DNA of 37,627 bases from a virus (taxonomy: Duplodnaviria > Heunggongvirae > Uroviricota > Caudoviricetes): the IMG/VR virus record IMGVR_UViG_2778261216_000004. The stretch is one strand, 5' to 3'. The notes beneath the pieces were generated by a model that had not been told where the DNA came from, searched no databases, and was given only the letters and a program-made list of their open reading frames with translations. Shown here in pieces: positions 1-29,112 of the stretch; position 1 is the first letter of the stretch; each line of letters opens with the position of its first letter. The position numbers and the translations under genes are program-made.

Positions 1-996
1 TTAACGAACCAGCCAGACCAGCATCAGGATAATCGCGACTAACAGTATCCACAGCGCGGGACGCGTTGCCATATTTTGCAACGTGTCCATCATCGGTGGA
101 AAAGGATTAAGCAGCGGTTGCATAACACGCGGATCAATCCCTTTAACCCGCCGTTGATAAAGCTGATTAAGAATATCCTCGGCCTGGGCAGAAGAAAGCG
201 ATGATTGCGCAGAAAGACCATATTTTTGCTGGATATATGCCGATAACGCCGCCAGTTCACTGGCATCTAAAGGTTGTTTTAGCGTCATCTGTAGTGATTC
301 CAGCGTCGGCGTATTTTGCTGGCTTAGCGTCTGACGCGCCTGTAGCCAGGTCACCAGATGGTTAAACAGTTTCGCTGGAATTAACTCGCCATCTTTCACC
401 CCGGAAAGTTCCAGCATCGATTGCCAGATCTGTTTGCTGGGTTCCCCCGTTGCCGCCGCAAGTTTGGTCACCAGCTGTTTTAGCGCATTGTGCTCCGCCG
501 GTAATAAAGGACGGTCGGTCGCCTCGCGCTGCTGTGGTTGCGGAATAACCATCTTCCCTTCCTGCAACAGGGTGAGAATGGTTTTTAATTGCTCCGGTGA
601 GAGCTGATTCAGCGGCGTCTGACCAAAGTTATGACGGATATAATCCGTGACCGCCTGACGATTATTCCCCAGACGTAAATACTCCCCTAATTGCGCTAAA
701 AGCTGGCGGGCAGAATGGCTTTTTTGCGCGGCCAGCAGACGTTGCGCCAGGTTATGCTCAGCGGCAGGGAAGTGACGCGAAAGCAGCGGTGAATCTCCCG
801 ACAGACCAATATCGTGCCTGATACCCGCCCACAGTTCTGCTCTTTGCTGTTGCGTCAGTGAGGTCACTTTCGTCATTAAGCTTTCCAGCGAAGTACGTTG
901 CTGACTGGATAAAGGCTGATTGCCCGCGCCAGACGGCAGGTTATCTCCCTGACCTGGTGGTTGCCCAGGAGGAGGGCCGGAAATAGGTTGTATCAT
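1..996 (-). CDS. flk: Flagellar regulator Flk (host gene)
   Basis: Full-length 331-aa ORF, Gln/Leu/Ser-rich with a C-terminal hydrophobic anchor (ALWILLVAIILMLVWLV), matching Flk as I recall it. It lies 99 bp from a divergent MKILVDE start typical of pdxB, the arrangement I recall for E. coli. Confidence 0.75.
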   Translation of the reverse strand: MIQPISGPPPGQPPGQGDNLPSGAGNQPLSSQQRTSLESLMTKVTSLTQQQRAELWAGIRHDIGLSGDSPLLSRHFPAAEHNLAQRLLAAQKSHSARQLLAQLGEYLRLGNNRQAVTDYIRHNFGQTPLNQLSPEQLKTILTLLQEGKMVIPQPQQREATDRPLLPAEHNALKQLVTKLAAATGEPSKQIWQSMLELSGVKDGELIPAKLFNHLVTWLQARQTLSQQNTPTLESLQMTLKQPLDASELAALSAYIQQKYGLSAQSSLSSAQAEDILNQLYQRRVKGIDPRVMQPLLNPFPPMMDTLQNMATRPALWILLVAIILMLVWLVR

Positions 997-1094
997 TACG
1001 TATCCTTATACCTGAAATCTTCGCAAGTATGCCTGGCCGCGAGATTATGGCACACTTGTCCGGTTAACTCTCGTCTCATACAGGTAACACAAAC

Positions 1095-1117
1095 GTGAAA
1101 ATCCTTGTTGATGAAAA
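1095..1117 (+). pseudogene. pdxB: 5' fragment of pdxB (about 7 codons, VKILVDE) left at the prophage junction; candidate att core
   Basis: GTGAAAATCCTTGTTGATGAAAA encodes the PdxB N-terminus and then diverges into a short out-of-context ORF that stops after 7 more codons. Everything to the right is phage-like. Confidence 0.45.
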
Positions 1118-1198
1118 AAACAAAGATTTAATTTCTTGATATAAAAGGATTTGTATCAGCGCATGTCCACGCAGTGACCACATTTTCGAGAGGTAGAG

Positions 1199-1228
1199 TA
1201 AGCCCGCAACATTGCGGGCTTTGTCTTA
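1199..1228. terminator. GC hairpin with T-rich tail at the prophage edge
   Basis: AGCCCGCAAcatTGCGGGCT followed by TTGTCTT on the plus strand, immediately after the methyltransferase stop. It would stop read-through from the host pdxB promoter into the prophage and may also end the com/methyltransferase transcript. Confidence 0.45.
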
Positions 1229-2017
1229 TGGTTCGATCGCCGTTTTGAGCCGTTGTGTTGCTACATCAAAATAATGATCACTGGTTTCTATACCAATAAA
1301 TTTGCGTCCTGCTTTCAGTGCTGCAACACCCGTTGTTCCCGATCCCATAAAAGGATCAAGGACTGTTCCACCACTATTCGCAGTCCTGACCAGTTCTGCC
1401 ATAAGTTCTTCTGGTTTTCCGGTCGGGTGCATTTTCTTTGATGGGATAACCGGGAACGTCATGCAGCCGTCGAACGGTCCCGAAGGCGATTTACCTAAAT
1501 GGCCTTTACTGCCCCAGACGATGTATTCGCACTGATGCCGGAAATACCCCGTATGGGGTGTTCGTGACCCCCTTCCTTTGTTCCACGCAATGATTCCACG
1601 CCATGTAAAACCGCTGGCCTGAAACGCATCGGTTAAAGCTGGCAGTTGTCGCCAGTCAGTAAATACCAGGGCATAACCGCCCGGCCTGACTGCGCGGTGT
1701 GCCTGTGCCATCCATAATTGTGTCCAGTAAGCCCACGAACGGGCATCCATGTTTTCACCCGCAAACCCATCAAAGCGATGAAGGTTCTCGCCGTTCAGAT
1801 ATTTTGCGTGGCTGCCCTGGTTGGTGCGTCCGGCCTTGTGTGTCGCGCCCGAACTGTAAGGCGGGTCAGTGATTAAGGCATCAATACTTTCTGGCTCAAT
1901 CAGCGGCAATATTTCCAGCGCATTCCCACGACAGAGCGTGGCATTGTCAGTCTGATAAACCTTAGTGTGTTCCGGTGTATGTGCTGGTTGGTGCTGGATT
2001 GCGATCCCCACGGTCAT
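1226..2017 (-). CDS. DNA N6-adenine (or N4-cytosine) methyltransferase, beta-class
   Basis: 263 aa with DPPY (motif IV) near the N-terminus and a DPFMGSGTTG (motif I) near the C-terminus, the order typical of N4/N6 MTase family proteins. Its 5' end overlaps the com-like ORF. Confidence 0.85.
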   Translation of the reverse strand: MTVGIAIQHQPAHTPEHTKVYQTDNATLCRGNALEILPLIEPESIDALITDPPYSSGATHKAGRTNQGSHAKYLNGENLHRFDGFAGENMDARSWAYWTQLWMAQAHRAVRPGGYALVFTDWRQLPALTDAFQASGFTWRGIIAWNKGRGSRTPHTGYFRHQCEYIVWGSKGHLGKSPSGPFDGCMTFPVIPSKKMHPTGKPEELMAELVRTANSGGTVLDPFMGSGTTGVAALKAGRKFIGIETSDHYFDVATQRLKTAIEP

Positions 2018-2726: not shown

Positions 2727-2987
2727 TTAATTCTGAGGTAAAGGCAAACTCATCTGATTGTTTCCCCTGTGTGAAGCTGGCAGCTCATGCCACGGGATAC
2801 CTTCTGAAGAGAGAGCGCCGGAGGCGTGTTTTGATGTGAATTTATGGAAAGCTTCCAGTGTTGAGAAGCATACGCCGCATTCCAGATTGTTACACTGGTA
2901 ATACTTTTGCCGCACGGTGTTTGAATCATTTTCAGGACGACTGGTGCGGATACGGGCAGATGCGCCACAAAGCGGACAACGAAACAT
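2727..2987 (-). CDS. ogr: Ogr/Delta-type zinc-finger late transcription activator
   Basis: MFRCPLCGASARIRTSR...YYQCNNLECGVCF matches P2 Ogr (MFHCPLC...RTSR...YHQCQNVNC). Strong AGGGAGG ribosome-binding site. Confidence 0.85.
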   Translation of the reverse strand: MFRCPLCGASARIRTSRPENDSNTVRQKYYQCNNLECGVCFSTLEAFHKFTSKHASGALSSEGIPWHELPASHRGNNQMSLPLPQN

Positions 2988-3245
2988 AGCGACCTCCCTT
3001 AACGTGGTGCTGCCACCATTCTAAGTTGCCCCAACTCAGATTCCAACAGCAACTCCGCTTTGAGCAAGTCACTGAAGTAGGCTTTGTCGTGGCGAATAAA
3101 TTACATGAGTATCTCAATGATGTCATTTGAGTAGGATTTTAATGTATAACAATAAGGCTTGTGTTAATCTTAAAGTTGAATTGTGGTTTATGAAAAAAAC
3201 AAATGCTGATTCTCAACGAAAATTTCACTGAAATAAGGGTTGTAA

Positions 3246-4304
3246 ATGACAAAAACTATATCGATTTTTAATAACAAAGGTGGTGTTGGTAAAACAACTA
3301 TAATTTGGAATCTTGCAGTATCGCTAGCAGATAAAGGAAAAAGTGTTTTATTAATAGACTTTGATCCCCAGTGTAATCTCTCAATTGCATGTATTGGTGA
3401 TGAGGAATTTTCAGAGTTATTGGAACCTTCAGATGATTTCCCTTTTGGAAAAACGGTTAAAGCATTTGCATTGCCTTACATACAACAAAATACTATAGGT
3501 GAAGTTTATACAACAGAACCTAAGACTAAGACAGATGCAGGCGTTTTGCATATTGTTCCTGGAGACTTTTGGCTTAATACATTTTCAGATATTTTAAATG
3601 TCGGCACTGATGTTATAAGTGGCGCAGGGTTATATCGTTTTATTTTGCCAGATTTGATAACAAAAAAAGCATCAGAGAAAAATGATGTTATTTATGATTA
3701 TGTCCTAATAGATTTACCTCCCTCATTCAATACGCTTGTTAGATCGTCATTGTACTGCTCGGACTATTTTTTAGTTCCTTGCACACCTGATTTATTCTCT
3801 TCATATTGTGTAGGGCTGATTGGTGAGATGTTGCCATCATTTATACGTGATTGGGAGCAGGGCAAGGAAAGATATCTATCAGGTAACCCACGAGATAATA
3901 TTATATCTCAGAAAGGGATGCCTAAATTTGGCGGTTGGATATTCAATGGTTTTGATACGAGAAAGCAAAATGATGTTAAACAAGAGGTTGGTGCAGATGC
4001 AGTTCATCACCGTTCAATAAGAAAAGCGATAGAGGAAAAAATGCTTCCTCAGCTTTCACAGATTTCATCTTACAACGCGGTTCCTAATTTTACTGATTAT
4101 GAACCAGTTGGAAAGATTGAGGACCTCAACGTTATGGCTCCTGATAGTATTATTCAAAATATACCTATTCGCTATTTGTCTCGAGTTAGGCCAACGAATG
4201 CTCTTCGTGGGCGGGGGCAATGGGCAGTTAATCAGGTAGAACTAATGAATGAGATGGCTGGTGAGTATGATCATTTAGCTGAACACATAATAAATAATTT
4301 TTAA
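3246..4304 (+). CDS. Orphan ParA/MinD-family ATPase with an uncharacterised ~150-aa C-terminal extension
   Basis: Deviant Walker A NNKGGVGKTT, the DFDPQCN motif and a Walker B-like YDYVLIDLPP. The gene and its flanks are visibly AT-rich compared with the prophage. No parB-like partner is adjacent. Confidence 0.8.
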   Translation: MTKTISIFNNKGGVGKTTIIWNLAVSLADKGKSVLLIDFDPQCNLSIACIGDEEFSELLEPSDDFPFGKTVKAFALPYIQQNTIGEVYTTEPKTKTDAGVLHIVPGDFWLNTFSDILNVGTDVISGAGLYRFILPDLITKKASEKNDVIYDYVLIDLPPSFNTLVRSSLYCSDYFLVPCTPDLFSSYCVGLIGEMLPSFIRDWEQGKERYLSGNPRDNIISQKGMPKFGGWIFNGFDTRKQNDVKQEVGADAVHHRSIRKAIEEKMLPQLSQISSYNAVPNFTDYEPVGKIEDLNVMAPDSIIQNIPIRYLSRVRPTNALRGRGQWAVNQVELMNEMAGEYDHLAEHIINNF

Positions 4305-4452
4305 CATGCAAAACAAAGTGTGCGCCTTTATAAGGTGCACATTGAGTTAATTTTCTTAATTTCTCCTAAAAAATGAAAGAACTATACATCCAATAAGTAC
4401 ACTCTGTTATTGGTAATATTTACTCATTTTTGATTTAATATCTACAAATCGC

Positions 4453-5553
4453 TCACTCTGTTTCCGCTATCCATTCCGGGATTTTTGCCTCAAGCTCAAG
4501 CTGCGTGGTAAAGCCGCTGTTATCAATGGTGTGCTCGGCTTTTGCAATGATCCAGTCCTGATTGTCGATGTCACTTTTGAAGCCTGTCACCGTGCCATGC
4601 ATTTCGGGGTAGAGTTCTGCGCGTCCACGTGCCAGCGTGATGGAGAATGATGCGGCTCTGCGTTGTAGCTGCTGCCACTTTGCCGCCGCTGCGCGTCTTG
4701 CTGCCTGTTCGTTCTGATAAGTTTTGCGTAACACAAACACGTTGCCTTCCGAACCTTCCATATAGTCACCTTCACGGCTGCTGCTTTTCTCTTTTTTCGG
4801 TTTGCGGCGTTTCACGCTGACTTTTTTCTTTTTCCCGTAATTAAGATCAAGCCAGTAAGCGCGTACCCCCGTATACGCTTCGCGGTCAGCAATGCGGAAC
4901 TGATGGCGATCGCCACTGCTGCGAGTGATGGCGAACGATGGCAACGGCTGGCCCTGTGCGTTCACGCCACCGCCTGGCATGATGAATAACAGATTACCGC
5001 TTTTTACTGTGGTGATTGCGCCCAGCATTTCCGCCATGCGCGTAAGGAAGGATATGTCGCTTTCTTCAGTCTGGTCAGCGTGGTCGATTTCAATATCCAT
5101 CAGCATTTCGCTGATTTGCGGTTTCAGACCATACCGATGAGCGATGGCGGATACCACACGCTCAACGGTCACATCATGCCAGGACACCTCACGTTTAACG
5201 TTAAATTCATCCCGAAAATCTGCGCTTCTGGCTGAAACAGTCAGCCTGTCCGGCGGTCCTTCGTGAGCGATTTCATCAACAATGTAAGTGCCTTTTTCTG
5301 TCAGCGGTTCTCCTTTCCAGCCCATGAGAACCGTCAGGCGCGCGCCCCGTGGCGGTAGCTGCAACTGACCATCCACATCATCCAGCGTGATGGTGAGCTG
5401 GTCCGCCTCAAATCCCCGGTTGTCGGTCAGTGACAGGCTCATCAGGCGCTCTGCCACGCCGGACAGCGTTTTCCCCTCCGCGAGAATATCAAAATCCGGC
5501 ATTTTTACGGGGTCTGTGCTCTGACTGAGCAATTGCATGGTGGTGTCGGTCAT
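4453..5553 (-). CDS. D: Tail protein D (late control gene D family)
   Basis: Matches P2 gpD motifs (LSLTDNRGFEADQL, REGDYMEGSEGNVF). Start set at the internal ATG with an AGGGAGGGA ribosome-binding site rather than the ORF-track start. Confidence 0.85.
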   Translation of the reverse strand: MTDTTMQLLSQSTDPVKMPDFDILAEGKTLSGVAERLMSLSLTDNRGFEADQLTITLDDVDGQLQLPPRGARLTVLMGWKGEPLTEKGTYIVDEIAHEGPPDRLTVSARSADFRDEFNVKREVSWHDVTVERVVSAIAHRYGLKPQISEMLMDIEIDHADQTEESDISFLTRMAEMLGAITTVKSGNLLFIMPGGGVNAQGQPLPSFAITRSSGDRHQFRIADREAYTGVRAYWLDLNYGKKKKVSVKRRKPKKEKSSSREGDYMEGSEGNVFVLRKTYQNEQAARRAAAAKWQQLQRRAASFSITLARGRAELYPEMHGTVTGFKSDIDNQDWIIAKAEHTIDNSGFTTQLELEAKIPEWIAETE

Positions 5554-5710
5554 CTGTTCCCTCCCTGTGCGGCATGGTCGCATGTGCGTGCGGAGTGGGT
5601 TACTGCTTTTTGTTGTCGCCGTGGCGGGAGAATAGCGCAGGGGTGAGATTACGCGCGTGGTGGGTGATGATTGTTGCTGAATCATTTAACGGATACAAGG
5701 GGCTGAAGCT

Positions 5711-6895
5711 ATGAGTGAAACTCGTTTTCATGGTGCCCGTGTTACGGAAAGTACCGACCTGGTAACAGCGATTAATGATGTTGATTCCAGTGTTATCGGT
5801 ATCGTGGCAACGGCGGATGATGCGGATGCGGAGCTGTTCCCGCTGAACAAGCCCACACTGCTGACCCGCGTCAATGACGTGCTGGGAAAATGCGGAACAA
5901 CGGGGACGCTTTATCGTGCGCTTAAGGCCATCGCAGACCAGGTGAGCACAAAGGTGATCGTCGTTCGCGTGGCTGAACACAAAGAAGAAGACGGAAAAAC
6001 GCAGGATCAACTGGTTATCGGTGGTTCTGAGAATGACGGCAGCTATACGGGGATGTATGCGCTGCTTGTTGCAGAGCAGGATGAAAGCATCGGATACCGT
6101 CCGCGTATTCTGGCCGCGCCGGAGCTGGACACGGAGGCGGTGACAAAATCCCTGTGCGTGATTGCGGGTAAACTGCGCGCGTTTGTCTATGCCTCATGTC
6201 ATGGCTGTGACACGATGGCTGATGCGATTACCTACCGCCAGAAATTCAACGAACGTGAGGTGATGCTCTTATGGCCGGACTTCATCGCCTACAACCCGAA
6301 AAGTGGCAAAAACGAAACGTTCCCCGCGCCTGCCTATGCGTGCGGCCTTCGTGCGTACATTGACCATGAGCAGGGATGGCACAAATCACTCTCCAACGTT
6401 CCGGTTAAGAATGTGCTGGGGATGTCGAGGCATGTGTTCTGGTCGTTGCAGGCCGAAGACAGTGATGCCAACAGCCTCAACAACAAAGAAATCACGACCA
6501 TTATTCGTCGCAACGGGTTCCGCTTCTGGGGCAACCGCACACCGGAAACGAACGCCTACATCTTTGAGGTGTACACCCGAACCGCACAGGTGCTGGCTGA
6601 TTCAATTGCGGAAGCGCAGTTTGAAACCATCGACAGTCCACTGACGCCTGCGAACGTGAAGGATGTTATCAGTGCCATCAGGGCAAAACTGGATTCGCTG
6701 GTTACTGCCGGGAAACTGATTGGCGCGGAGTGCTGGTATGACGTGGTGGATAACAGCACCACGAATTTACGTCAGGGGCGCGTGCGTATTCGCTACAAAT
6801 ATACGCCTGTTCCCCCGCTGGAAGACATGGAGCTTTACCAGTCGTTTACTGATGAATTCTTTGGTCCCGCATTTGCGGTGCTGGGAGGTGCCTGA
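5711..6895 (+). CDS. FI: Tail sheath protein FI
   Basis: 394 aa; N-terminal region (IGIVATADDADAELFPLNKP) resembles P2 FI. Confidence 0.9.
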   Translation: MSETRFHGARVTESTDLVTAINDVDSSVIGIVATADDADAELFPLNKPTLLTRVNDVLGKCGTTGTLYRALKAIADQVSTKVIVVRVAEHKEEDGKTQDQLVIGGSENDGSYTGMYALLVAEQDESIGYRPRILAAPELDTEAVTKSLCVIAGKLRAFVYASCHGCDTMADAITYRQKFNEREVMLLWPDFIAYNPKSGKNETFPAPAYACGLRAYIDHEQGWHKSLSNVPVKNVLGMSRHVFWSLQAEDSDANSLNNKEITTIIRRNGFRFWGNRTPETNAYIFEVYTRTAQVLADSIAEAQFETIDSPLTPANVKDVISAIRAKLDSLVTAGKLIGAECWYDVVDNSTTNLRQGRVRIRYKYTPVPPLEDMELYQSFTDEFFGPAFAVLGGA

Positions 6896-7407
6896 TGGCT
6901 GTACCAAAACATCTTCGCTTTTTTACGCTGTTTGTGGATGGTGAAAACGAAGTGGGTAAGGTGACGTCCGTCACTCTACCTAAGCTGACGCGCAAAACCG
7001 ACAGCTACCGGGGTGGTGGCATGATGGGTGCGGTAAGTATTGATCTCGGTCTGGACGACTCCGCGCTTGATGCGAGCTTTGTCATGGGGGGCGCAGTTCG
7101 TGAGCTGTTCCTTAAGTATGGCGGCACGATTGACGGCACGCTGCTGCGTTTTGCGGGTGAATACTACACCGATGCAGAAAGCGACCTGTATGAAGTCGAA
7201 ATGCGCGGACGTGTGACGGAAATTGATATGGGGGAAGCCAAACAGGGCGAAGCCACATCACACACTTACGCCATTAAAAACACCTACTACAAGCTGAGTG
7301 TTAACGATCGCCCGTTGTGGGAGATTGACCTGCTGAACTTCATTTACCGGAAGGACGGCAAGGACATTGTGCCCGATCGCATCCGTTCCGCGCTCGGGCT
7401 TGGCTGA
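6895..7407 (+). CDS. FII: Tail tube protein FII
   Basis: 170 aa, start overlaps the FI stop; P2 FII-like. Confidence 0.9.
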   Translation: MAVPKHLRFFTLFVDGENEVGKVTSVTLPKLTRKTDSYRGGGMMGAVSIDLGLDDSALDASFVMGGAVRELFLKYGGTIDGTLLRFAGEYYTDAESDLYEVEMRGRVTEIDMGEAKQGEATSHTYAIKNTYYKLSVNDRPLWEIDLLNFIYRKDGKDIVPDRIRSALGLG

Positions 7408-7461
7408 TAAGTAATATGCAGGCGGCGCAGTGCGTCGCCTCTGACTGAAAGGAATTTCCTG

Positions 7462-7827
7462 ATGAAAGAGACGAAAAACATCGATACCGAAAACACGGTA
7501 GTTGCTGACACTGTGAAAGAAACCAGTGAACGTGGTGTAAAACTTACCCAACCAATTGAGCGAGGCGGCGAAAAAATCACGTATGTGGAGATCACCGGGG
7601 CTATTGAGCAGGCTGGATCTCTGCGAGATTTGTCGCTGTCTGATGTGCTGAATCTGAAAGCGGAATCCATGTTTACGCTGCTGTCACGCGTGACATCACC
7701 GCGACTGGATGAAGTGACGATCAAAAAAATGGCATCCCGTGACTTTATTCAGTTATGTGTGGTTGCCGTAAATTTTTTGAGCGGTGCGGACTCTGGCGGG
7801 AAGAACGAACAGGCGACGGAAGCCTGA
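7462..7827 (+). CDS. E: Tail assembly chaperone E
   Basis: ORF between FII and T with an AAAGGAA ribosome-binding site. It contains the slippery site used to make E+E'. Confidence 0.8.
   Translation: MKETKNIDTENTVVADTVKETSERGVKLTQPIERGGEKITYVEITGAIEQAGSLRDLSLSDVLNLKAESMFTLLSRVTSPRLDEVTIKKMASRDFIQLCVVAVNFLSGADSGGKNEQATEA
7773..7779 (+). other. Programmed -1 ribosomal frameshift site T TTT TTG giving the E+E' fusion (7462..7991)
   Basis: The heptamer TTTTTTG lies in the E frame; the -1 frame continues as the overlapping 7755..7991 ORF. Same slippery sequence and arrangement as P2 E/E'. Confidence 0.7.
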
Positions 7828-7941
7828 TCACGGTTGTGTGCTTTGAGCACATAGAAGACTTTGTGGCAGATATTGCCGTTATTTTTAACTGGTCGCCCGC
7901 CGAAATCTTCATGATGACGCCCGGCGAAGTGGTTAGCTGGC

Positions 7942-10785
7942 GTGAGCGGGCGGCACTTCGCAGCGGGAATGCAGACAATGAAGACTCTTGATATCCGGGT
8001 CGCTTTCAGCGCCGTTGACAGGCTGACCCGACCTGCCGAAAACGCACGCCGCCTGATGGGGCAGTTTGGTGACTCCATCCAGCGAACGCAGGGGGCGATC
8101 AAAAATCTCGAGCGTCAGGCGCGATCATTTGAGCGCGCCCGCGACGCTGTCAGTAAAGCGGATGCGGGTATCGTGAAAGCACGACGCCAGCTTAACGCCC
8201 TTAATCAGTTACAACGCACGGGTACAGTGCTCAGCGAAAAACAACAAAAGCTGATGCAGCAGTTAAGCACCCGGCTTGAACGCCTGAATGAATCGCGCAC
8301 ACGGGAAATTCAGAAAATGCGGGAGCTTGGCGGAGAGCTGAAACGCCACGGCATTTCCCTGACAGGCAGCGATAACACCATCCAGCAGGCCATCAGACGC
8401 ACCGAACAGTACAACAACCAGCTTGAACGCGAACGGCAGGCGCTTGCGCGTGTAACGCGGGCGCGTGAGCGGTATTCGCGCGCGCAGGAAACCGCGGGAA
8501 AACTGAAAACAGGTGGTGCGCTGGCAACTGGTGCTGCAGCGGCGGGCGGCTATGCTGCCGGGCGTTTTTTGCAGCCTGCGATCGGGTTCGGCAAAGAGAT
8601 GTCCCGCGTTCAGGCACTGACGCGAATCGACAAAAACAGCCCGCAGTTTAAGGCGCTGCGTGAGCAGGCGTTAAAACTTGGTTCTGAAACACAGTTTACT
8701 GCGAGTGATGCCGCCAGTGGGCAGAGCTTTCTGGCAATGGCTGGTTTTACTCCGCAGGCCATTCAGGCCGCATTGCCCGGTGTTCTTAATATGGCGCTGG
8801 CAGGTGGCGTCGAACTCGGCGAGACGGCTGATATAGGCTCCAATATCCTCACACAGTTCAACCTGACAGCCGATCAAATGGACCGGGTTGGCGATACGCT
8901 GACAGCGGCATTCACCCGGACCAATACTGATTTACGCGCGCTGGGCGAAACCATGAAGTATACCGGTCCGGTTGCCGCAAAACTTGGTATCAGTCTTGAA
9001 GAAGCGGCAGCCATGGCCGGGATGCTTGCCAATAATGGTCTTCGTGGAAGCGATGCTGGTACGGCCATGCGCGCAAGTCTGTCCCGCCTTGCATCACCGC
9101 CAAAAGCTGCGGCTGATGCGCTGAAAGAGCTGGGGGTGTCAGTTGCTGACGCCAGAGGCAAAATGCGCCCGATGGAGGATGTGCTGCTTGATCTCTATAA
9201 GGCGACACAAAAATACGGACAGGTGGACCAGGTTTCCTTCTTCAAGGACATCGCCGGAGAAGAGGCGTTCGTTGGTTTGCAGACGCTTGTTGCGGCGGCT
9301 GGTTCAGGAGAGCTGCAAAAACTGACCAGAGAATTGCAGGGGGCAAGGGGAGAGGCCGATCGCGTTGCAAAAGTAATGGCCGATAATCTTGATGGGGACC
9401 TGAAAAATCTCGACAGCGCATGGGAAGGTCTTCGTATTCGCATCAGTGATCTGGTTGACGGTCCGCTGCGTTCTGTCACGCAGTGGCTCACGCGGGTGCT
9501 TGAAAAAATCACCTCGCTGGCGCAGGCCCATCCGGTACTGACGCGCCAGCTACTGATAGCAGGCGGTGCGTTGCTGGCAATGACTGCAACGGTTGGCTCG
9601 TTGTCGCTGGCTATTGGTGTGCTTGCTGGCCCGCTGGCAAAACTGCGTCTTGGTTTTTCTCTCCTGACCGGATCAATGAATGCTGTCAGGGTCCTGCCAG
9701 CACTATGGGGAATGGTGACGGGTTCCGTTTCTTTGCTGGGAGGTGCTATCGGGGCGCTGTTCAGTCCGGTCGGATTGATTGCTGCTGCGTTTGTGGCTGC
9801 GGCGGTTCTCATCTGGAAATACTGGGAACCCATTAAGGCGTTTTATGCCGGGGTGTTCAACGGGATTATGGAACGGCTGGCTCCGTTGCGCGAAACCTTT
9901 GAACGGTTTGGCCCTGTTTTTGACGCAATCGGAAGCGGGATCAGTCAGGTGTTTAACTGGTTTAAATCGCTGCTGTCACCGATGGAGTCCAGCAAGGAAA
10001 CGCTGGATAAATGTACCAGTGCTGGCGAGATATTCGGTAACGTTCTTGGCGGTGCGTTACAGCTTGTTCTGACACCTGCAAAAATGCTACTGGATACGCT
10101 GGCGTGGATACTTGAAAAACTTGGCGTCCTTCCGGATGAAGCGGAAAGGGCGCGCAAGAAAATCGAAGACGCACAGCGTGCGGCCATTCTTCAGGACAAG
10201 GTTGCCTTGCTTCAGGGGGACCTTGCGAAAATCAATCCGCCGAAGCCTGTGGAAAATGGCAATGGCACCGGGGGTGATAAACCCAAAGACAACAAACCAT
10301 TCACAGACAGCAATACCGGGACGCTACGCAGACTCAGCAAAATTGCTGATAACACAGGTAAGCTGGTTGATGAGACGAAAAAACGTATTGGCCCCGGCGA
10401 TATTGTCTTTAAGAACCTGCCCCGCGCACTTGCCGTTCGTGGGGAGTGGCAGGAGCGGAAGAGTGCGCAGGTCAGTAAGCCTGCTTCCGCAATCAACATC
10501 ACACCCGTGGTCCCGACTCCTCTGCCTCCGGCGCTGGTCCCTGTTGTTGCGGCCAGCTCCCGCCCGGTGGCGGAGGCCATACGATCGCCAGTGGCATCAG
10601 TTCCTGCAACTTCCCGTAACCGGGAGCCTGTTGTCTCCGGATTTGGCGGTGAAATTCATGTTCATCTGCATAACGTTGTTACGCAGAATCCCCGCGAACT
10701 GGCGAAACTGGTCGGTGAAATGGTCAGGGCAGAAATGGAACGGCGCGCCCGTGCCGGGCGTGGCAGTTTTTGCGATAAAGATTGA
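7942..10785 (+). CDS. T: Tail tape-measure protein T
   Basis: 947 aa, coiled-coil N-terminus, Gly/Ala-rich hydrophobic middle, position after E/E'. The exact start is uncertain (alternative ATGs at 7969 and 7978). Confidence 0.85.
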   Translation: MSGRHFAAGMQTMKTLDIRVAFSAVDRLTRPAENARRLMGQFGDSIQRTQGAIKNLERQARSFERARDAVSKADAGIVKARRQLNALNQLQRTGTVLSEKQQKLMQQLSTRLERLNESRTREIQKMRELGGELKRHGISLTGSDNTIQQAIRRTEQYNNQLERERQALARVTRARERYSRAQETAGKLKTGGALATGAAAAGGYAAGRFLQPAIGFGKEMSRVQALTRIDKNSPQFKALREQALKLGSETQFTASDAASGQSFLAMAGFTPQAIQAALPGVLNMALAGGVELGETADIGSNILTQFNLTADQMDRVGDTLTAAFTRTNTDLRALGETMKYTGPVAAKLGISLEEAAAMAGMLANNGLRGSDAGTAMRASLSRLASPPKAAADALKELGVSVADARGKMRPMEDVLLDLYKATQKYGQVDQVSFFKDIAGEEAFVGLQTLVAAAGSGELQKLTRELQGARGEADRVAKVMADNLDGDLKNLDSAWEGLRIRISDLVDGPLRSVTQWLTRVLEKITSLAQAHPVLTRQLLIAGGALLAMTATVGSLSLAIGVLAGPLAKLRLGFSLLTGSMNAVRVLPALWGMVTGSVSLLGGAIGALFSPVGLIAAAFVAAAVLIWKYWEPIKAFYAGVFNGIMERLAPLRETFERFGPVFDAIGSGISQVFNWFKSLLSPMESSKETLDKCTSAGEIFGNVLGGALQLVLTPAKMLLDTLAWILEKLGVLPDEAERARKKIEDAQRAAILQDKVALLQGDLAKINPPKPVENGNGTGGDKPKDNKPFTDSNTGTLRRLSKIADNTGKLVDETKKRIGPGDIVFKNLPRALAVRGEWQERKSAQVSKPASAINITPVVPTPLPPALVPVVAASSRPVAEAIRSPVASVPATSRNREPVVSGFGGEIHVHLHNVVTQNPRELAKLVGEMVRAEMERRARAGRGSFCDKD

Positions 10786-10791
10786 GGAGTC

Positions 10792-11286
10792 ATGGCCATG
10801 ATGATGATCTACGGCATGTTTGTTTTTGAGCTGCGCACATTGCCGCATCAGCAGTTACAGCAAAACAAAAGCTGGCGGCATGTGAAAAATGAACGCGTTA
10901 ACCGTTCAGCAAGCTGGCAGTATATCGGTGCAGGTGATGATCGCATTGTGCTTTCCGGCGTGCTTTATCCTGAAATTACAGGTGGCGAAGTGTCGCTTTC
11001 GTTGCTGACCACGCAGGCATATACAGGACGCCCCTGGCCTCTGATTGATGGTGTCGGGCAGATTTACGGCATGTATGTACTGACTGAAACGAATACGACC
11101 CGTTCCGAGTTTGATCGCTACGGTAAGGCGAAAAAGATAGAATTTTCACTGACTCTTGAACGCTGTGATGAGGATTTGCGGGAGCGCCTGCAATCCTCAT
11201 CGTTCAGCGATATGTTGTCCGGCTTCAAAGATAAGGTGACATCATCCCTTAATAGCGCGGCCAGCTCAGTTAAGGGGCTGCTCTGA
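10792..11286 (+). CDS. U: Tail protein U
   Basis: Matches P2 gpU (MMMVLGLFVF...WQYIG.GDD...LSGVLYPE). Confidence 0.85.
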   Translation: MAMMMIYGMFVFELRTLPHQQLQQNKSWRHVKNERVNRSASWQYIGAGDDRIVLSGVLYPEITGGEVSLSLLTTQAYTGRPWPLIDGVGQIYGMYVLTETNTTRSEFDRYGKAKKIEFSLTLERCDEDLRERLQSSSFSDMLSGFKDKVTSSLNSAASSVKGLL

Positions 11287-11442
11287 TTTAACGTATGTCG
11301 CCAATTTCCTGATGAAGGTGACTGGCGACTTGCTGTTGTATGTCCTTCTCAGAAAATTGTTTTTGAATAACAAATAACAGGATTTTATAATCTCTTAACC
11401 TTATAACATGTGTGGTCTGAAATAATAATTAAGGAGATTATC

Positions 11443-12015
11443 GTGCTGTCTTACTTAATGGCAATTCACTTTGTTTTATTTGGGGACTCTACTAATTTAA
11501 AAAACTTCTGGAAATATGAAGTAATTCGGCGGAAACGTATGGATATCTGGAGGCTTTTAAGAGAGAAAAAACAGCGTAACCGGAATTTCCTTTTCTGGTG
11601 GCGGTTGGCTAACGAAATGTATATTAATGGTAATAAATTACATAAGAAAGCAGCCAAAAAGTTAAACAGTAAAATAATTAACAAATTTGGTTGTGAAATT
11701 GGATTGGGCGCAAATATTGGAAAAGGGTTAACAATTCCCCATCATGCTGGAATTGTTGTTCATTTTGCTGTTGATGCTGGTGAAAATCTGGTGTTACGAC
11801 AGAATACTACCATTGGACAGATAGATGGTGACATGCCTGGTTCAAGAGTAAAAATTGGTAGTAACGTTGATATCGGAGCTAATTGTTGCATCATTGGATT
11901 ATCACGTAAAATTGGGGATAATGTAAAAATAGGTGCAATGTCTTTTATAAATAAAGATATACCATCGAACTGCACATATATAACTAAAAAGAGCGGTGTT
12001 GTATTGTATAAATAG
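11443..12015 (+). CDS. Hexapeptide-repeat (left-handed beta-helix) acyltransferase, accessory gene
   Basis: Repeats of the IG.N..IG type resembling WcaB/CysE-like acetyltransferases. GTG start with an AAGGAG ribosome-binding site. Visibly AT-rich. Sits at the position of P2 Z/fun. Confidence 0.7.
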   Translation: MLSYLMAIHFVLFGDSTNLKNFWKYEVIRRKRMDIWRLLREKKQRNRNFLFWWRLANEMYINGNKLHKKAAKKLNSKIINKFGCEIGLGANIGKGLTIPHHAGIVVHFAVDAGENLVLRQNTTIGQIDGDMPGSRVKIGSNVDIGANCCIIGLSRKIGDNVKIGAMSFINKDIPSNCTYITKKSGVVLYK

Positions 12016-12022
12016 AGTACAT

Positions 12023-12058
12023 AAAGCCATCTATATTTCAATCGATGGCTTTTTCTCT
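12023..12058 (+). terminator. Hairpin terminator between the convergent acyltransferase and tfa genes
   Basis: AAAGCCATC-(12 nt loop)-GATGGCTTT followed by TTTCTCTTT. Confidence 0.5.
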
Positions 12059-12637
12059 TTATTGTGGGGCGACTGGCCACTCAACATCCGCTGCTACCGC
12101 TGTATTAACACGATTCAACAATACCCGGTATGTCTTCCATGCAGCCAGTAACGATGCCTCTTCCTCCGTTGCAATATCCAAATCTACGGCATCCTGAAGT
12201 GGCGCAATATGCTCGCTGGCTACCTGCATCAGGCTGTTTTTTGTTTCTTCCGCCTCCCTTATCCGAAACAGTTTTTCTGCTTCTGCATCTTTCACCCAGG
12301 ATGTGCCGTTCCACTTCTGATACTCTCCATACGGCGACAACCAGGTAACATTTTCCGGTAATGGACCGAGTTCAGAAATAAATAACGAGTCCCCTGATGC
12401 CACGTCATAAACCGTTTTACCCCGATGGTCTTCAACGAGATGCCACGATGCCTCATCACTGTTGAAAACGGCCACGAAGCCAGCCGGAATATCTGGCGGG
12501 GCAATATCGGTACTGTTTGCAGGCAGACCTGTATGAGGCGGAATGTATGCGTCACCTTCACCAATAAATTCATTAGTTCCGGCCAGCAGATTATAAATTT
12601 TTATGGTCCGTGGTTGTTCACTCATTCTGAAATCCAT
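12059..12637 (-). CDS. G: Tail fibre assembly protein (G-like chaperone)
   Basis: Tfa-like N-terminus ([24 protein letters not shown]). Start set at an internal ATG 3 codons into the ORF. Confidence 0.8.
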
Positions 12638-12645
12638 GTTCACCT

Positions 12646-13548
12646 CTACTTAATATCAGAGACAGAATATTGTTTATTGAGCGTATGGGTGTGAGCACCA
12701 ATAACGATGCTACTTCTGTGGCTATGTGCGCCAGAGGTGACATTACCTACGGGATTTTCTGGATTAATCCGGTGTATATGCGAATCAGGGCGAAACCGGT
12801 TATTAGCCTGATGTTGTATCAGTACATCATCAGCCTGATGTTCAGGGTTAATACAGACCTGCCCGGAACGTGAGCAATACGTCCGATAATCGCCGCATCC
12901 AATATATTTAGCATCCGCATAACGGCAAACAGAATTACCCGGACAGTATGCATATGTGCCAAATACTGCCGACTGGCGGGATTGTGCGTATTCCCAGTTA
13001 ATTGATTCTGTTTTTTTATTAAAGTTATCCCAGGCCTGCTTCATCTGGCGGGCAACACTTTCAAACGGTACCTGACCACATCCAGCCCCCATCGCAGGGA
13101 ATACCACCGTCTTTATTTTCCTGTCTGTCGTTGCGTTTTTATTGTGCTGAAAGATGGCAAGCAGAGCGGCCCAGGTTGCGTTATATACAGCGTCTGTTCC
13201 GTCAATTGTCAGCGGAACACGCATTGTTGGCGCATGTACCAGCCAGGGGTGATGATTATGCCCCGTTTCAATAACAAACGCAGATCCTACAGGCTGCTCG
13301 CCTAGATATTCACGAAGAATATGATTCTGAACGCGGGACTGTAACTGAGTACCGAAGAATGCGGTAATGGCGGCATCAACACCGCCATCCATCAGGCCGA
13401 AACTATTTGCCGCACTTACCATACAGTCAAATTCTCTGATTGTTTCAAATGGCTTTCCGACAATATTCACATTATCTGCGTTTGCAAATACCCGCTTAAA
13501 TGCTTCAGCCATTTCTGTTACTGGTGCAGAAAGAATGAGCGTAATCAT
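12646..13548 (-). CDS. Macro-domain protein with a Cys-rich, His-x-His C-terminal tail
   Basis: [19 protein letters not shown] and [10 protein letters not shown] fit the macrodomain NAAN...GGGV.GAI signature. Its ATG overlaps the H stop (ATGA) and has a GAGG ribosome-binding site. C-terminal [18 protein letters not shown] resembles the H tip repeats. Confidence 0.7.
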
Positions 13549-15341
13549 GCAAGCCTCACAATATAGTTAAATGCGATGTTTTTGACGGTGTTTTCCGCGT
13601 TACCAGCAGCGTTAACGGTGATGGTGTGTCCATGTGAGCCAATCGCAACCGAGTGCGTGTGTGCACCAATACCGACAGTGTGCTGATGAGAACCAATACC
13701 TACAGTATGAGAATGTGAGCCAGAGGAACCTGTTGTTGCTGATGTATATTGAGTTGCCAGACGCCCAGATGTCAGTGGAATTTTCCCCCCCTGGTTTGCA
13801 CCATCTGATGTTGGTATTGAATGCGTGTGACTCCCGGCGTTACTGGTAGTTTTGGTCCCATAGTCAAATAGTGAGGTTGTTTTCGTCCCGTAATCAAACG
13901 ACGATGTGGTTTTCGTACCCAAATCCGTACTGGATACGCTGGCGCTGTGGGTGTGCGATTTAATGCCGTCCTGTTCCTGAGACAATACGGCACGACCACT
14001 GGCGGGCTTGCCCTTAATCGTCCAGCCACGCATATCAGGGATCACGCCTGACGGATAAGCGGCTGCAAGTTTCGGGTATGCAGATTTGTCAAAAGTCTGC
14101 CCCACCATGATAGCGTAACCGTCAGGCGGCGTATCTGACGGCCACGGCAGAGGTATTCCCGGTGGTAATGCTTCAATTCCCTTTGTGCCATCAAAAGCAA
14201 CACCACTGATGGGGTGTGCTGTTTCCAGTTTACTTGCAGATACTGCGTTACCTGTTGCGGATAATGCGCCAATATCCTGCACTGTGGGCTTGTTTTTATC
14301 CGTGTAAGTGCGGTACCAGATGGTTTTTTTTCCCTTGTCCAGTATCACCCCGGTAAATTGCGCCCGGTGTTCTTTTGTGGTCGGATCTGAATCTTCCAGC
14401 CCTGTGGTGATCCTGACTATTCCGCCGATGATTTCGCCAAACACTTCAATCAGGCAGCCGCCCAGGCCGATATCACCGTACCCCGTGTCAGTAAGCACGC
14501 AGTGCTGTGACAGCGAAATATTAGCCCTGAATATCCAGCTCCCTGTTCTGAAGGCGCCACGCTCATTCAGCCACTCCACGAATTGTTCCGTTGTCCAGCG
14601 TTGTCCTGCTTTACCTATGTACCCGTTTTTTGCATAAACGCGTGGTGTGCCCACGTTGATCAGGAACAGCTCCTTGTTGGGGATGTCCTCACCATTGCGG
14701 TTTTTCGCAAGCCGACCATCAGCGTTGTCCATGGCGATCTTTATGGCCTTTGGCGTGGCTGCCCGGGTCTCTGATGTACTGGTGGTGTCGCTGCTTAACT
14801 GAGTAAAACCTTTTGTGGTCAGCGAGGCATCCGGGTGACGTCGTGACTGTTCATGCTCTTTCAGTTTGTCATCCACGTAATCCACTGTGGCCATCACCAT
14901 GGTGTTATCCACGGTAAGCGCCACGGTGGCAGTGCTGGATACGGTCAGAATGGTGCGAAATGTTTGTGCACGTCCGGACCCTTCGGCAACGGTTGGTTTG
15001 TAACTTTCGGCAGTATTGCCCACCGCGATTAAATCGCCGTGCTCATCAAACACACCAATTTCCCGGATCCAGAATCCGCCCGTTTCAGGAGGAATAACCA
15101 GCTCCGCAATAATGCGGTTCTGATGTGTTGCGTCCAGGATGACGCGATTAACAGTGTGTCGCCACACCTCATGCACCAGACGGATCTGCTTACTGTCTGG
15201 TGTGGGCAACGTGCCGCCACCGTCGCCCACGGCCATATGAGTCAGGCGGACAGGCTTACCATCTGGCGCGGCTGCCTGAGCTAATTTTTTTGCACCCGTA
15301 TCGGTGATAACGGTTTTAAATTTTCGTGTTGTGGTACTCAT
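13545..15341 (-). CDS. H: Tail fibre protein H
   Basis: N-terminal 150 aa match P2 gpH ([26 protein letters not shown]); C-terminus has His-x-His repeats and ends [15 protein letters not shown]. Confidence 0.85.
13845..13935 (-). repeat. Three imperfect 30-bp tandem repeats inside H (encoding DYGTKTTS(S/L)F)
   Basis: Protein-level repeat [28 protein letters not shown] and the corresponding DNA periodicity. Confidence 0.5.
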
Positions 15342-23598: not shown

Positions 23599-23752
23599 AG
23601 TTTTTGCCCCTCTGACTGGTTCTTCAGTCATGATGGCAAAGCGTAACAGGCTGATACAAAGGGCTTTTGTTGTAAGAAAACGGCCAGAACAGGGGGTTAA
23701 GGAGAACAGTTTCGCGCGCGGGTAATCTTCCTGTAATTACTCAGGGGGAGCA

Positions 23753-28009: not shown

Positions 28010-28969
28010 TTACTCCTTGTCCATTGCGTACAGCCCATTAACTAGAGCAAACTGTGGCACCCCGTCCGCGATGAAAGTCGCATTAACTCCGCAGGCTTCG
28101 CGGATAGCGGGTGCCACAATCTCCGCCCCTCCACCGACAACCATCACCCGCCCGTAACCCGAAAAACCCGCCAGCGCGCGGATCACGCGTTGTTTCAGTG
28201 TTTCTTCCTTTTCACGAATTACCGCCATCAGGCTGGCGTAATGCGCGTCATTGTGGATGTGCTGGCGCAGCCAGGCTTCATCATGGCGATGTTCGATAAT
28301 GGTATTGGCGATGTGGTGACTGGTGCGCATACCGTTAGTGGCCATCACCGACAGTACGGCATCGGCCATCAGAGAAACGCCCACGTGTGGATCGCAAAAC
28401 ACCTGGCTGATACCTGCCAGTTGCCCCTGAACCTTTGCCACATCCAGCGTGGTTCCGCCCAAATCCACAATCAGCAGGGATTCAAACGGACTCATGTCAG
28501 CCAGTGCCTTAAAGCCAGCCGGAATGGATTCAGGCATAACCCGTACGTTACGGATAGTGAATGCTTCGCCGTTCTGGTACTCCACCGGGCGCATGACGTT
28601 CGCTTTTTTGCGGTTGATGTTGGCCATGTCCGGCTGTGCGTTTGTATCGAAATACTCGCTTAGTGGCAGGGTGACAACCACATCCACTTCCTGTGGTGTG
28701 ATGCCTGATTTGACCAGCGCGTGATGAATGGCAATTATATTCACATCGCTGTACTGGTATTGCGTGTCGGTCGTCTGGACAAAGCGATCGCTGACCGGAT
28801 CAAAACCATAGCGCACGCCATCAAGCATGTAGTTCGCGGGCTGCGTGCCACCGAACGGCGCAGACCATTCCGACTTGAAGCTGTTCGGGCTGATGGCGTT
28901 GCGGCGTTCGCCGTTCTCAGTCCATGCCAGCTTGATGTTGGTGGAGCCGTCGTCGATACAAATTTTCAT
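28010..28969 (-). CDS. parM: ParM/StbA-like actin-like ATPase
   Basis: MKICIDDGSTNIKLAW...ISPNSFK...YQYSDVNIIAIHHAL...LIVDLGGTTLD...VGGGAE closely follows R1 ParM motifs (MLVFIDDGSTNIKLQW..., IIDLGGTTLD, VIGGGAE). Confidence 0.8.
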   Translation of the reverse strand: MKICIDDGSTNIKLAWTENGERRNAISPNSFKSEWSAPFGGTQPANYMLDGVRYGFDPVSDRFVQTTDTQYQYSDVNIIAIHHALVKSGITPQEVDVVVTLPLSEYFDTNAQPDMANINRKKANVMRPVEYQNGEAFTIRNVRVMPESIPAGFKALADMSPFESLLIVDLGGTTLDVAKVQGQLAGISQVFCDPHVGVSLMADAVLSVMATNGMRTSHHIANTIIEHRHDEAWLRQHIHNDAHYASLMAVIREKEETLKQRVIRALAGFSGYGRVMVVGGGAEIVAPAIREACGVNATFIADGVPQFALVNGLYAMDKE

Positions 28970-29006: not shown

Positions 29007-29112
29007 GGATTTTTAAATCCCGCTTTTGCCTGTTTTGTGCGCGCTTCATATATCGCGGCACGTTTTTTGCTCATTTACGGGATTTGTGAATCCCGTTTCT
29101 GTCTGTTTTTTG
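29007..29112. repeat. Two ~33-bp direct repeats, each a hairpin with a T-rich tail, spanning the A stop and the parM-like upstream region
   Basis: GGATTTTTAAATCCCGCTTTTGCCTGTTTTGTG (29007-29039) and GGGATTTGTGAATCCCGTTTCTGTCTGTTTTTTG (29079-29112). Confidence 0.45.

Follow-up and report, generated by a model that had tools for sequence, protein, structure and literature searches.

Inverted tail module of P88-type, P2-like prophages and a candidate activator dyad between its divergent late genes

In phages P2 and 186, the tail genes FI, FII, E/E' (with a TTTTTTG -1 frameshift), T, U and D form a single operon, FETUD. The P2 record bears out the initial annotation of the present DNA on this point: FETUD is co-directional with H-G, D is part of the operon, and ogr lies downstream in the same direction. 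TGT-N12-ACA is the consensus for P2 late promoters (PMC3931495). One P2 activator site serves two of these promoters, pP and pO: the P2 record places the site at 3057-3087 and the transcription starts at 3016 and 3127, ~55-56 nt to either side. Closer to the DNA studied here are the inducible, lytic phage P88 and the active temperate Citrobacter phage PhiSM (PMC5285337; PMC6456863). We found no explicit description of the inversion reported below, or of its promoter, in the papers searched on P88, Xuanwuvirus, SEN4/5, P2-like phages and the Xenorhabdus tailocin.

The window, by which we mean the whole stretch of 37,627 nucleotides analysed, contains a P88-type, P2-like prophage of E. coli whose integration site adjoins flk. 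Pfam and PHROGs identify a complete P2-like (Peduoviridae) contractile tail set, comprising sheath, tube, E/E' with a -1 frameshift, tape measure, and gpU and gpD homologues. The prophage also encodes an Ogr/Delta-family zinc-finger activator.

Gene order in and around the tail block

The features that define the locus are as follows.

2727-2987, minus strand: ogr-like late activator gene (Ogr/Delta zinc finger; PF04606, E=5e-14; phrog_603)
3246-4304, plus strand: ParA-like ATPase cargo gene of low GC (0.36), between D and ogr (Pfam AAA_31/CbiA)
4453-5553, minus strand: D, tail baseplate hub / late control D, 366 aa (PF05954; phrog_52, E=1e-163)
5711-6895, plus strand: FI, tail sheath (PF04984, PF22671, PF17482)
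6895-7407, plus strand: FII, tail tube (PF04985, E=7.5e-47)
7462-7827, plus strand: E (phrog_103; ORF frames)
-1 frame, open to 7991, plus strand: E', with slippery TTTTTTG at 7774-7780 (sequence, ORF frames)
7978-10785, plus strand: T, tape measure protein, in an ORF open from 7942 (PF10145); the start was chosen by homology with the P88 annotation
10792-11286, plus strand: U, tail protein, final gene of the inverted block (PF06995, E=5.5e-39)
~11443-12015, plus strand: hexapeptide O-acetyltransferase cargo gene of low GC (0.39), between U and tfa (phrog_2154)
12059-12643, minus strand: tfa/G, tail fibre assembly gene (PF02413, E=1e-39)
12646-13548, minus strand: macro-domain ORF, between H and tfa (PF01661, E=8e-19; phrog_2613)
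13545-15341, minus strand: H, tail fibre (PF12571, PF03406, PF07484)

Relative to P2 and 186, the window carries in inverted orientation a 5.7-kb block that extends from the F promoter to U and includes FI, FII, E/E' and T. The gene set and its internal order are those of P2 and 186, and the P2 record annotates a frameshift of the same kind in E/E'. Unlike P2, however, the window lacks a single co-directional FI-FII-E-T-U-D operon after H-G: FI through U lie on the plus strand, D, tfa and H on the minus strand, and D is split off from the block. D and ogr still point the same way as the head and baseplate genes' operon. ORFs, Pfam and PHROGs agree with the strand assignments of the initial annotation and with its intact frameshift site. 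Its statement that U converges directly on tfa needs correction, as the plus-strand O-acetyltransferase gene intervenes.

D begins at the ATG at 5553, just 3' of a GGGAGGG Shine-Dalgarno sequence, and alignment with three D homologues agrees. A longer D ORF (410 aa, start 5685) was rejected; it has no Shine-Dalgarno sequence and the same alignment gives the extension no support. The divergent D-FI spacer at 5554-5710 is therefore 157 bp long, as originally described. Most relatives with confidently placed start codons have a spacer of 145-162 bp.

A layout shared across Enterobacterales phages

A whole branch of P2-like phages, the P88 group, has the inverted block as its regular and fixed arrangement; this branch is large and has been sequenced before, and the window's layout is not a novel rearrangement. 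In P88-type phages (Xuanwuvirus/Gemsvirus), D diverges from FI over a spacer of ~150 bp and U lies at the far end toward the fibre genes, as in the window. P88, 500465-2 and PhiSM are 92-97% identical to the window in nucleotides across D through U (4452-11292); they share its 157-bp spacer and have an identical dyad. A longer query, 4400-12700, matches P88 or 500465-2 at 92-97% over 82-83% of its length; P88 homology begins only at 4452, and homology with P88-type phages stops at 11292. Beyond these limits the genomes differ. In P88 and 500465-2, the place of the window's acetyltransferase after U is taken by a DNA invertase and an invertible fibre segment. In P88, D is directly followed by ogr-homologous DNA, where the window and 500465-2 have a ParA-like gene.

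Phages of five genera have this layout: P88 (Xuanwuvirus), 500465-2 (Gemsvirus), phiT5282H (Novemvirus), 3LV2017 (Reginaelenavirus) and SEN4/5 (Senquatrovirus), the annotation in the last case being that of SEN5. phiT5282H, 3LV2017 and SEN4/5, from Enterobacter, Klebsiella and Salmonella respectively, are 66-72% identical to the window in nucleotides at the junction. Among complete E. coli genomes, 1358 of 5426, about a quarter, contain the D-FI junction at no less than 95% identity. What looked like an inverted tail module is thus how the genomes of a very common prophage group of E. coli and other Enterobacterales are normally organised.

We compared layouts at 80 D-anchored loci taken from species-representative genomes. 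All 56 loci with D at least 60% identical to the window's D are inverted, and every locus with informative flanks and D at most 53% identical keeps the P2 order. This 60%/53% split in D identity coincided with the inverted/canonical split in the sample, and neighbour-joining trees of D and of FI each recover the inverted set as monophyletic. Together, the split and the monophyly favour, as the simplest explanation, a single inversion long ago that has since become fixed throughout Enterobacterales. The trees were midpoint-rooted on a sample bounded by similarity, so the direction of change rests on the wide spread of the canonical order, which occurs in P2, RE-2010 and Burkholderia KS5. P2 itself is distant from the window, with proteins only 32-51% identical (gpD 51%). 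The P2/186 order is accordingly not universal for P2-like phages, a caution for annotators and prophage-calling tools.

The initial annotation had offered three readings: a real inversion of the ~5.7-kb block, a lineage-specific architecture, or an assembly artefact. The second is correct, and it is the product of the first, in that the inversion is real but ancient. A recent or strain-specific origin is refuted by loci that share the arrangement with D proteins merely 57-65% identical. The comparison with related prophages that had been proposed as a check found the arrangement to be common in a described phage lineage, which clears it of suspicion as an artefact or a novel rearrangement.

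A candidate Ogr dyad between divergent late genes

The D-FI spacer contains a candidate Ogr dyad. The initial annotation reported no Ogr-type motif, and an exact TGT-N12-ACA is indeed absent from the late intergenic regions; the window's six exact matches, fewer than expected by chance, all lie elsewhere. We dropped the exact consensus as a test and used comparison with relatives instead. The original statement is nevertheless misleading, as a one-mismatch TGT-N12-AGA stands at 5614-5631, the position of the canonical dyad of relatives. It forms part of TTTGTTGT-N12-AGAA at 5609-5632 (TGT at 5614-5616, AGA at 5629-5631), centred at 5622.5 in the middle of the 157-bp spacer. The site departs from the consensus in having AGA instead of ACA. 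Across the whole window, TTTGTTGT-N12-AGAA has two exact matches, each central in a divergent late spacer (D-FI, O-P). The second lies at 23666-23689 between O and P, with TGT-N12-AGA at 23671-23688 and its centre at 23679.5. For O, ATG 23598 was preferred and a longer ORF (start 23631) rejected.

Relatives conserve this site. TGT-N12-A[C/G][A/G] occurs at the homologous position in 59 of 61 inverted loci, with freely varying N12, against a background rate for the motif of 0.034 per 100 bp per strand; two Providencia loci have a different palindrome at the dyad position. The exact TGT-N12-ACA occupies the position homologous to the window's D-FI site in 34 of 57 relatives. Within each of four phages, the type of right half-site (ACA or AGA) covaries between the O-P and D-FI sites.

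Two putative -10 elements flank the dyad at mirror positions.

5666-5671, plus strand: predicted -10 hexamer of the FI promoter, GATGAT (nAnnAT, 44 nt from the dyad centre)
5574-5582, minus strand: predicted extended -10 of the D promoter, TGcGACCAT (mirror nAnnnT, 44 nt from the dyad centre)

These mirror positions would place the candidate dyad at about -55 for both predicted promoters, with predicted transcription starts at ~5678 (plus strand, FI through U) and ~5568 (minus strand, D). D would have a leader of only ~15 nt. On the FI side, 54 of 57 non-identical relatives have nAnnAT at a distance of exactly 44 nt from the dyad centre, while leader lengths vary; on the D side, the mirror nAnnnT lies at 44 nt in 51 of 57 inverted-clade sequences, again despite drifting leader lengths. 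The dyad and the FI-side hexamer are also present in canonical-clade loci, but only 2 of 19 match the D-side mirror hexamer. phiT5282H, 3LV2017 and SEN4/5 agree with the window in their inverted layout, in the length of the spacer and in having a central dyad with mirrored -10 elements, and two of the three have the canonical ACA half-site.

The promoter model draws on this conservation and on analogy with P2. The F promoter of P2 and 186 has the same geometry as the window's, its dyad centre lying ~80-88 nt upstream of the FI start codon. At P2 pP/pO, as at the window's O/P and D/FI pairs, divergent late genes are separated by a spacer of ~150-170 bp with one dyad at its middle. The window's O-P spacer also has -10-like hexamers, TAATCT (23723-23728, plus strand) and CATCAT (23630-23635, minus strand), 44-45 nt from its dyad centre. 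The P2 positions are annotated transcription starts, whereas the window's D/FI pair is predicted and its right half-site is AGA, not ACA. GATGAT and GACCAT are both weak matches to TATAAT, which lowers certainty, though weak matches are expected of activator-dependent promoters. A scan of 4300-12800 for the sigma-70 consensus found nothing in the D-FI spacer, and such a scan is uninformative for promoters of this kind.

D might alternatively have a promoter of its own, constitutive or dependent on another factor, or an unrecognised second site in place of the shared Ogr dyad; the architecture would be unchanged. The empty sigma-70 scan implies that any promoter in the spacer is non-canonical, the CGCGCGCG run conserved between the dyad and the D-side -10 might be an element in its own right, and the predicted D leader is very short. 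Against this stand the single conserved dyad in the spacer, the exact mirror distance held while leader lengths drift, the same geometry at the O/P pair, and the two promoters that the P2 record documents on one site. We consider an independent D promoter unlikely.

Origin of the inversion and its alternatives

A fixed, inherited architecture together with a single dyad driving two divergent late promoters is, in our judgement, probably the joint explanation of the locus. The initial annotation reasoned that an inversion would require a new divergent late promoter, and we judge that inference sound. The inversion would have moved the F promoter, including its dyad-symmetric Ogr site, beside the start of D. 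One central dyad (TGT-N12-ACA in most relatives, TGT-N12-AGA here) could then serve two divergent late promoters, so that a single Ogr site would drive D and FI divergently, a design like the P/O promoter pair of P2 and of the prophage itself. We lean toward the further view that the dyad symmetry of the Ogr operator is what made the ancient inversion tolerable: flipped with its promoter, the operator would have come to lie by the orphaned D, which would have needed only a mirror -10. The outcome would be a second bidirectional late promoter and, in P88-type genomes with ogr directly after D, an Ogr-D-ogr positive feedback unit. The comparative footprint thereby offers a testable model in which an operon inversion was accommodated by two-way re-use of a symmetric activator site.

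Recombination could have produced the same layout as an in-situ inversion, had a P2-like ancestor gained a foreign FI-U block in the opposite orientation. Both block ends border cargo hot spots, and alignment with P2 fails at the N-terminus of D and at the C-terminus of U. However, the D and FI trees show the same inverted/canonical split, and the F-promoter dyad and -10 geometry are as in canonical relatives. Identity to P2 is also similar for D (49-51%) and for FI, FII and U (42-46%), and hence gives no sign of a different origin for the block. Such a replacement is improbable.

A recent or a programmed, reversible inversion, such as a Gin/Cin-type invertase switch, is very improbable. It is suggested by the DNA invertase gene right after U in P88 and 500465-2, but in P88 the invertase lies next to a duplicated tail-fibre/tfa segment, the kind of DNA on which such enzymes usually act, and the flanks of the window's block contain no invertase ORF. 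All 61 inverted-clade loci have the same orientation, and both orientations are not seen among close relatives. The conserved, specialised D-side -10 element implies that the orientation has long been fixed. Comparison of 5554-5710 with 11287-12058 yielded no significant inverted repeats, in keeping with the original observation of no flanking ones. A wider search of 4300-12700 returned 33 weak pairs of chance quality, which we rejected as breakpoint scars; one pair, 5612-5633 and 12320-12341 (77%), touches the dyad but lies inside tfa coding sequence and was likewise rejected.

Mis-orientation of the 5.7-kb block during contig building is suggested by the departure from P2 order and by nothing further, and it is refuted, with next to no probability left to it, by an identical junction in the 1358 complete E. 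coli genomes and in independently sequenced phage genomes of five genera, by its presence in the inducible or particle-producing phages P88, PhiSM and SEN4/5, and by block ends without repeats able to mislead an assembler.

Following the inversion, the convergent U/tfa gap and the D/ogr gap would have been free to take in cargo genes. The O-acetyltransferase ORF in the former has EpsC/CysE/WcaB-like NCBIfam matches, every one under its curated cut-off. For this gene, the scan of 4300-12800 gives a sigma-70-like promoter, TTGAAT-17-TATAAT, at 11363-11391.

Organisation of the tail block

Gene identities were assigned from the ORF list together with Pfam and PHROG scans of the window. They bear out the initial annotation in placing FI through U on the plus strand and ogr, D, tfa and H on the minus strand.

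Tail-region genes
2727-2987, minus, ogr, Ogr/Delta zinc-finger gene
4453-5553, minus, D
5711-6895, plus, FI, sheath
6895-7407, plus, FII, tube
7462-7827, plus, E
7978-10785, plus, T, tape measure
10792-11286, plus, U
12059-12643, minus, tail-fibre assembly gene (tfa)
13545-15341, minus, tail fibre H

In the P2 GenBank record, H-G is followed by FI-FII-E/E'-T-U-D-ogr on a single strand throughout, in agreement with the co-directional order initially given for P2. The TTTTTTG slippery heptamer was rightly described as intact (7774-7780); its -1 frame stays open up to 7991 and overlaps the T start, as in P2. D begins at ATG 5553, with GGGAGGG upstream. The 410-aa mechanical ORF starting at 5685 was rejected, as alignment with three homologues gives it no support, so the 157-bp divergent D-FI spacer originally described (5554-5710) stands.

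Distribution and origin of the inverted layout

Megablast of window positions 4400-12700 against phage records recovered D through U at 92-97% identity in Escherichia phages 500465-2, PhiR44_2, P88, 520873 and 503458, among others, and in Citrobacter phage PhiSM. The records of P88 (Xuanwuvirus) and 500465-2 (Gemsvirus) share the window's strand pattern: D minus, sheath to U plus, fibre and baseplate genes minus. P88 can be induced and is lytic for a range of E. coli strains; PhiSM is temperate and active (PMC5285337; PMC6456863). More sensitive blastn extended the junction-spanning layout, at 66-72% identity, to phiT5282H (Enterobacter, Novemvirus) and to Klebsiella phages such as 3LV2017 (Reginaelenavirus). 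Salmonella phage SEN5 (Senquatrovirus) is likewise inverted, whereas Salmonella phage RE-2010 (Felsduovirus) is ordered as in P2 and Burkholderia phage KS5 is canonical, with D adjoining U on a single strand.

Complete E. coli genomes carry the D|FI junction (801-bp query, at least 80% of its length covered) in 1358 of 5426 cases, nearly all copies being 95-99% identical; the U/acetyltransferase/tfa/macro junction occurs in 495. We then surveyed one genome per bacterial species with gene D as anchor, using tblastn to place FI, FII, E, T, U, I, J and V. FI-U is inverted relative to D in every one of the 56 loci with a D of 60% or higher identity to the window's, and in these I or J lies on D's strand wherever it falls within the fetched flank. 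Where D is at most 53% identical, every locus with informative flanks has the P2 order. Inverted loci come from genera including Salmonella, Citrobacter, Klebsiella, Enterobacter, Kosakonia, Pantoea, Erwinia, Brenneria, Pectobacterium, Symbiopectobacterium, Serratia, Edwardsiella, Providencia, Morganella, Xenorhabdus, Photorhabdus, Yersinia, Hafnia and Rouxiella. Neighbour-joining trees of D and of FI each separate the loci into two clades, the 61 inverted and the 26 canonical.

The simplest reading of the survey and trees is one old inversion, since fixed. A lineage-specific architecture, one of the options first proposed, is correct on the evidence of the phage records, the genome survey and both trees; the arrangement is common in a described lineage, the outcome named beforehand as a possible refutation. 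That lineage is a recognised distinct subcluster of P2-like phages (PMC5261728), and the literature searched yielded no comment on the inversion itself. A recent inversion is refuted by the sharing of the layout among loci with D proteins only 57-65% identical. A programmed orientation switch is excluded because all relatives show a single orientation, and an assembly artefact, raised initially, is refuted by the same layout in phage records and complete genomes.

P88-type homology covers 4452 (the D stop codon) to 11292 (slightly beyond the U stop codon), and both flanks are variable. The search for inverted repeats at the block ends returned chance-quality pairs only, in line with the initial annotation, which reported none; the absence of better repeats is expected of an old event. 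Public phage genomes with a taxonomic classification already show the inverted architecture, so it is an ordinary finding, and the only modestly new element would be the predicted shared-operator D/FI promoter.

One 226-kb contig titled Vagococcus sp. WN89Y (Firmicutes; NZ_JBQPOM010000071.1) holds a P88-type prophage of the same layout, with D 98% identical to the window's E. coli D; it probably reflects contamination or mislabelling of the assembly.

A predicted shared operator for D and FI

TGT-N12-ACA is the consensus of P2 late promoters (PMC3931495). The initial report that no Ogr-type motif exists holds for the exact consensus, which is missing from the window's late intergenic regions, but not for a one-mismatch variant in the D-FI spacer. 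TTTGTTGT-N12-AGAA has exactly two perfect matches in the window.

Matches to the candidate Ogr site
5609-5632, centre of the D-FI spacer
23666-23689, centre of the O-P spacer

The two spacers measure 157 and 154 bp, the latter with O, the minus-strand scaffold gene, starting at ATG 23598. This is probably the true start: the mechanical ORF begins at 23631, but its alignment to PHROG profiles sets in only at residue 13-15, and ATG 23598 has a good Shine-Dalgarno sequence (GAGGGG) ahead of it. The ATG farther upstream overlaps the -10 element predicted for the O promoter. The P2 record annotates a single activator-binding site (3057-3087) for both the P and O promoters, whose transcription starts flank it at 56 and 55 nt.

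Among inverted-clade loci, TGT-N12-A[C/G][A/G] occupies the homologous position in 59 of 61, against a background of 0.034 per 100 bp per strand; N12 varies freely, and the dyad is frequently longer (GTTGT...ACAAC). Its right half-site, in 57 non-identical sequences, is the canonical ACA in 34 and AGA in 22. Four phages each carry the same half-site type at O-P and D-FI (AGA in the window and phiT5282H, ACA in 3LV2017 and SEN5), as expected if each phage's activator reads both.

Two Providencia loci of the inverted clade (L038 and L043) have a D-FI spacer without the TGT-N12-ACA dyad. Centred at its position is the palindrome GGTTCTC-N10-GAGAACC, whose midpoint lies 78.5 nt away from the start of D and 80.5 nt away from that of FI, suggesting that activator specificity changed and promoter geometry was kept.

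On the FI side, a -10-like nAnnAT begins precisely 44 nt from the centre of the dyad in 54 of the 57 sequences; on the D side, a mirror hexamer nAnnnT, mostly with TG before it, is likewise 44 nt away in 51, while leader lengths shift by 10-15 nt across the set. This geometry would put the dyad at about -55 in both directions.

Predicted -10 elements in the window
5666-5671, plus, FI side, GATGAT, predicted start ~5678
5582-5574, minus, D side, TGcGACCAT, predicted start ~5568

In nineteen canonical-clade control loci the dyad and the FI-side hexamer recur with identical spacing, which argues that the F promoter is homologous and moved with the block; the mirror hexamer occurs in only two of them. 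The inversion would thus have set a symmetric F-promoter operator beside D, D would afterwards have gained a -10 element at the mirror position, and the D-FI spacer would now act as a second bidirectional late promoter. Judged from these sequence patterns, we regard this model as reasonably likely.

Accessory genes and prophage boundaries

Additional genes around the tail block
3246-4304, plus, ParA-like ATPase gene (AAA_31) between D and ogr, low GC (0.36)
~11443-12015, plus, hexapeptide O-acetyltransferase cargo gene in the U-tfa gap (11287-12058), low GC (0.39)
12646-13548, minus, 300-aa macro-domain ORF (PF01661) between H and tfa

P88 lacks the ParA-like gene and has ogr-homologous DNA directly after D, so this insertion parts D from ogr in the window. 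That P88 stretch (NC_026014, 1105-1320) carries no annotated CDS; the P88 annotation also places a small separate 'hypothetical protein' within the D-FI spacer. The ParA-like gene adjoins a strong hairpin (4317-4343) and weakly matches the candidate defence family PDC-M28B in PADLOC.

Contrary to the first description, U does not converge directly on tfa; the acetyltransferase gene intervenes and faces tfa instead. Its EpsC/CysE/WcaB-like matches fall under curated cut-offs, and it comes with a sigma-70-like promoter of its own (TTGAAT-17-TATAAT, 11363-11391) and a hairpin followed by a T-run (12023-12058). P88 and 500465-2 instead hold a DNA invertase and an invertible fibre segment in this slot. 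The gene may serve lysogenic conversion. The macro-domain ORF overlaps the H stop with its start and has matches to phrog_2613 and to a 'tail' PHROG; its DarG match in PADLOC is only faint. Lying in the fibre locus beside the O-acetyltransferase cargo gene, it might target an acetylated or ADP-ribosylated receptor.

The early region encodes, on the minus strand, a ParM/StbA actin-like segregation protein (28010-28969, E=4e-82) and a 932-aa gpA-family replication protein (29071-31869), larger than the P2 A protein (~761 aa from record coordinates). A partition-type ATPase is unusual in an integrating P2-like prophage. Positions 1-2017 (minus) hold first the host gene flk (NCBIfam equivalog, E=1e-151) and then a type II-like DNA methyltransferase (1226-2017). 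With flk at the left and an integrase truncated by the right end (36608-37627), the prophage adjoins flk, its left boundary lying between ~1000 and 2700.
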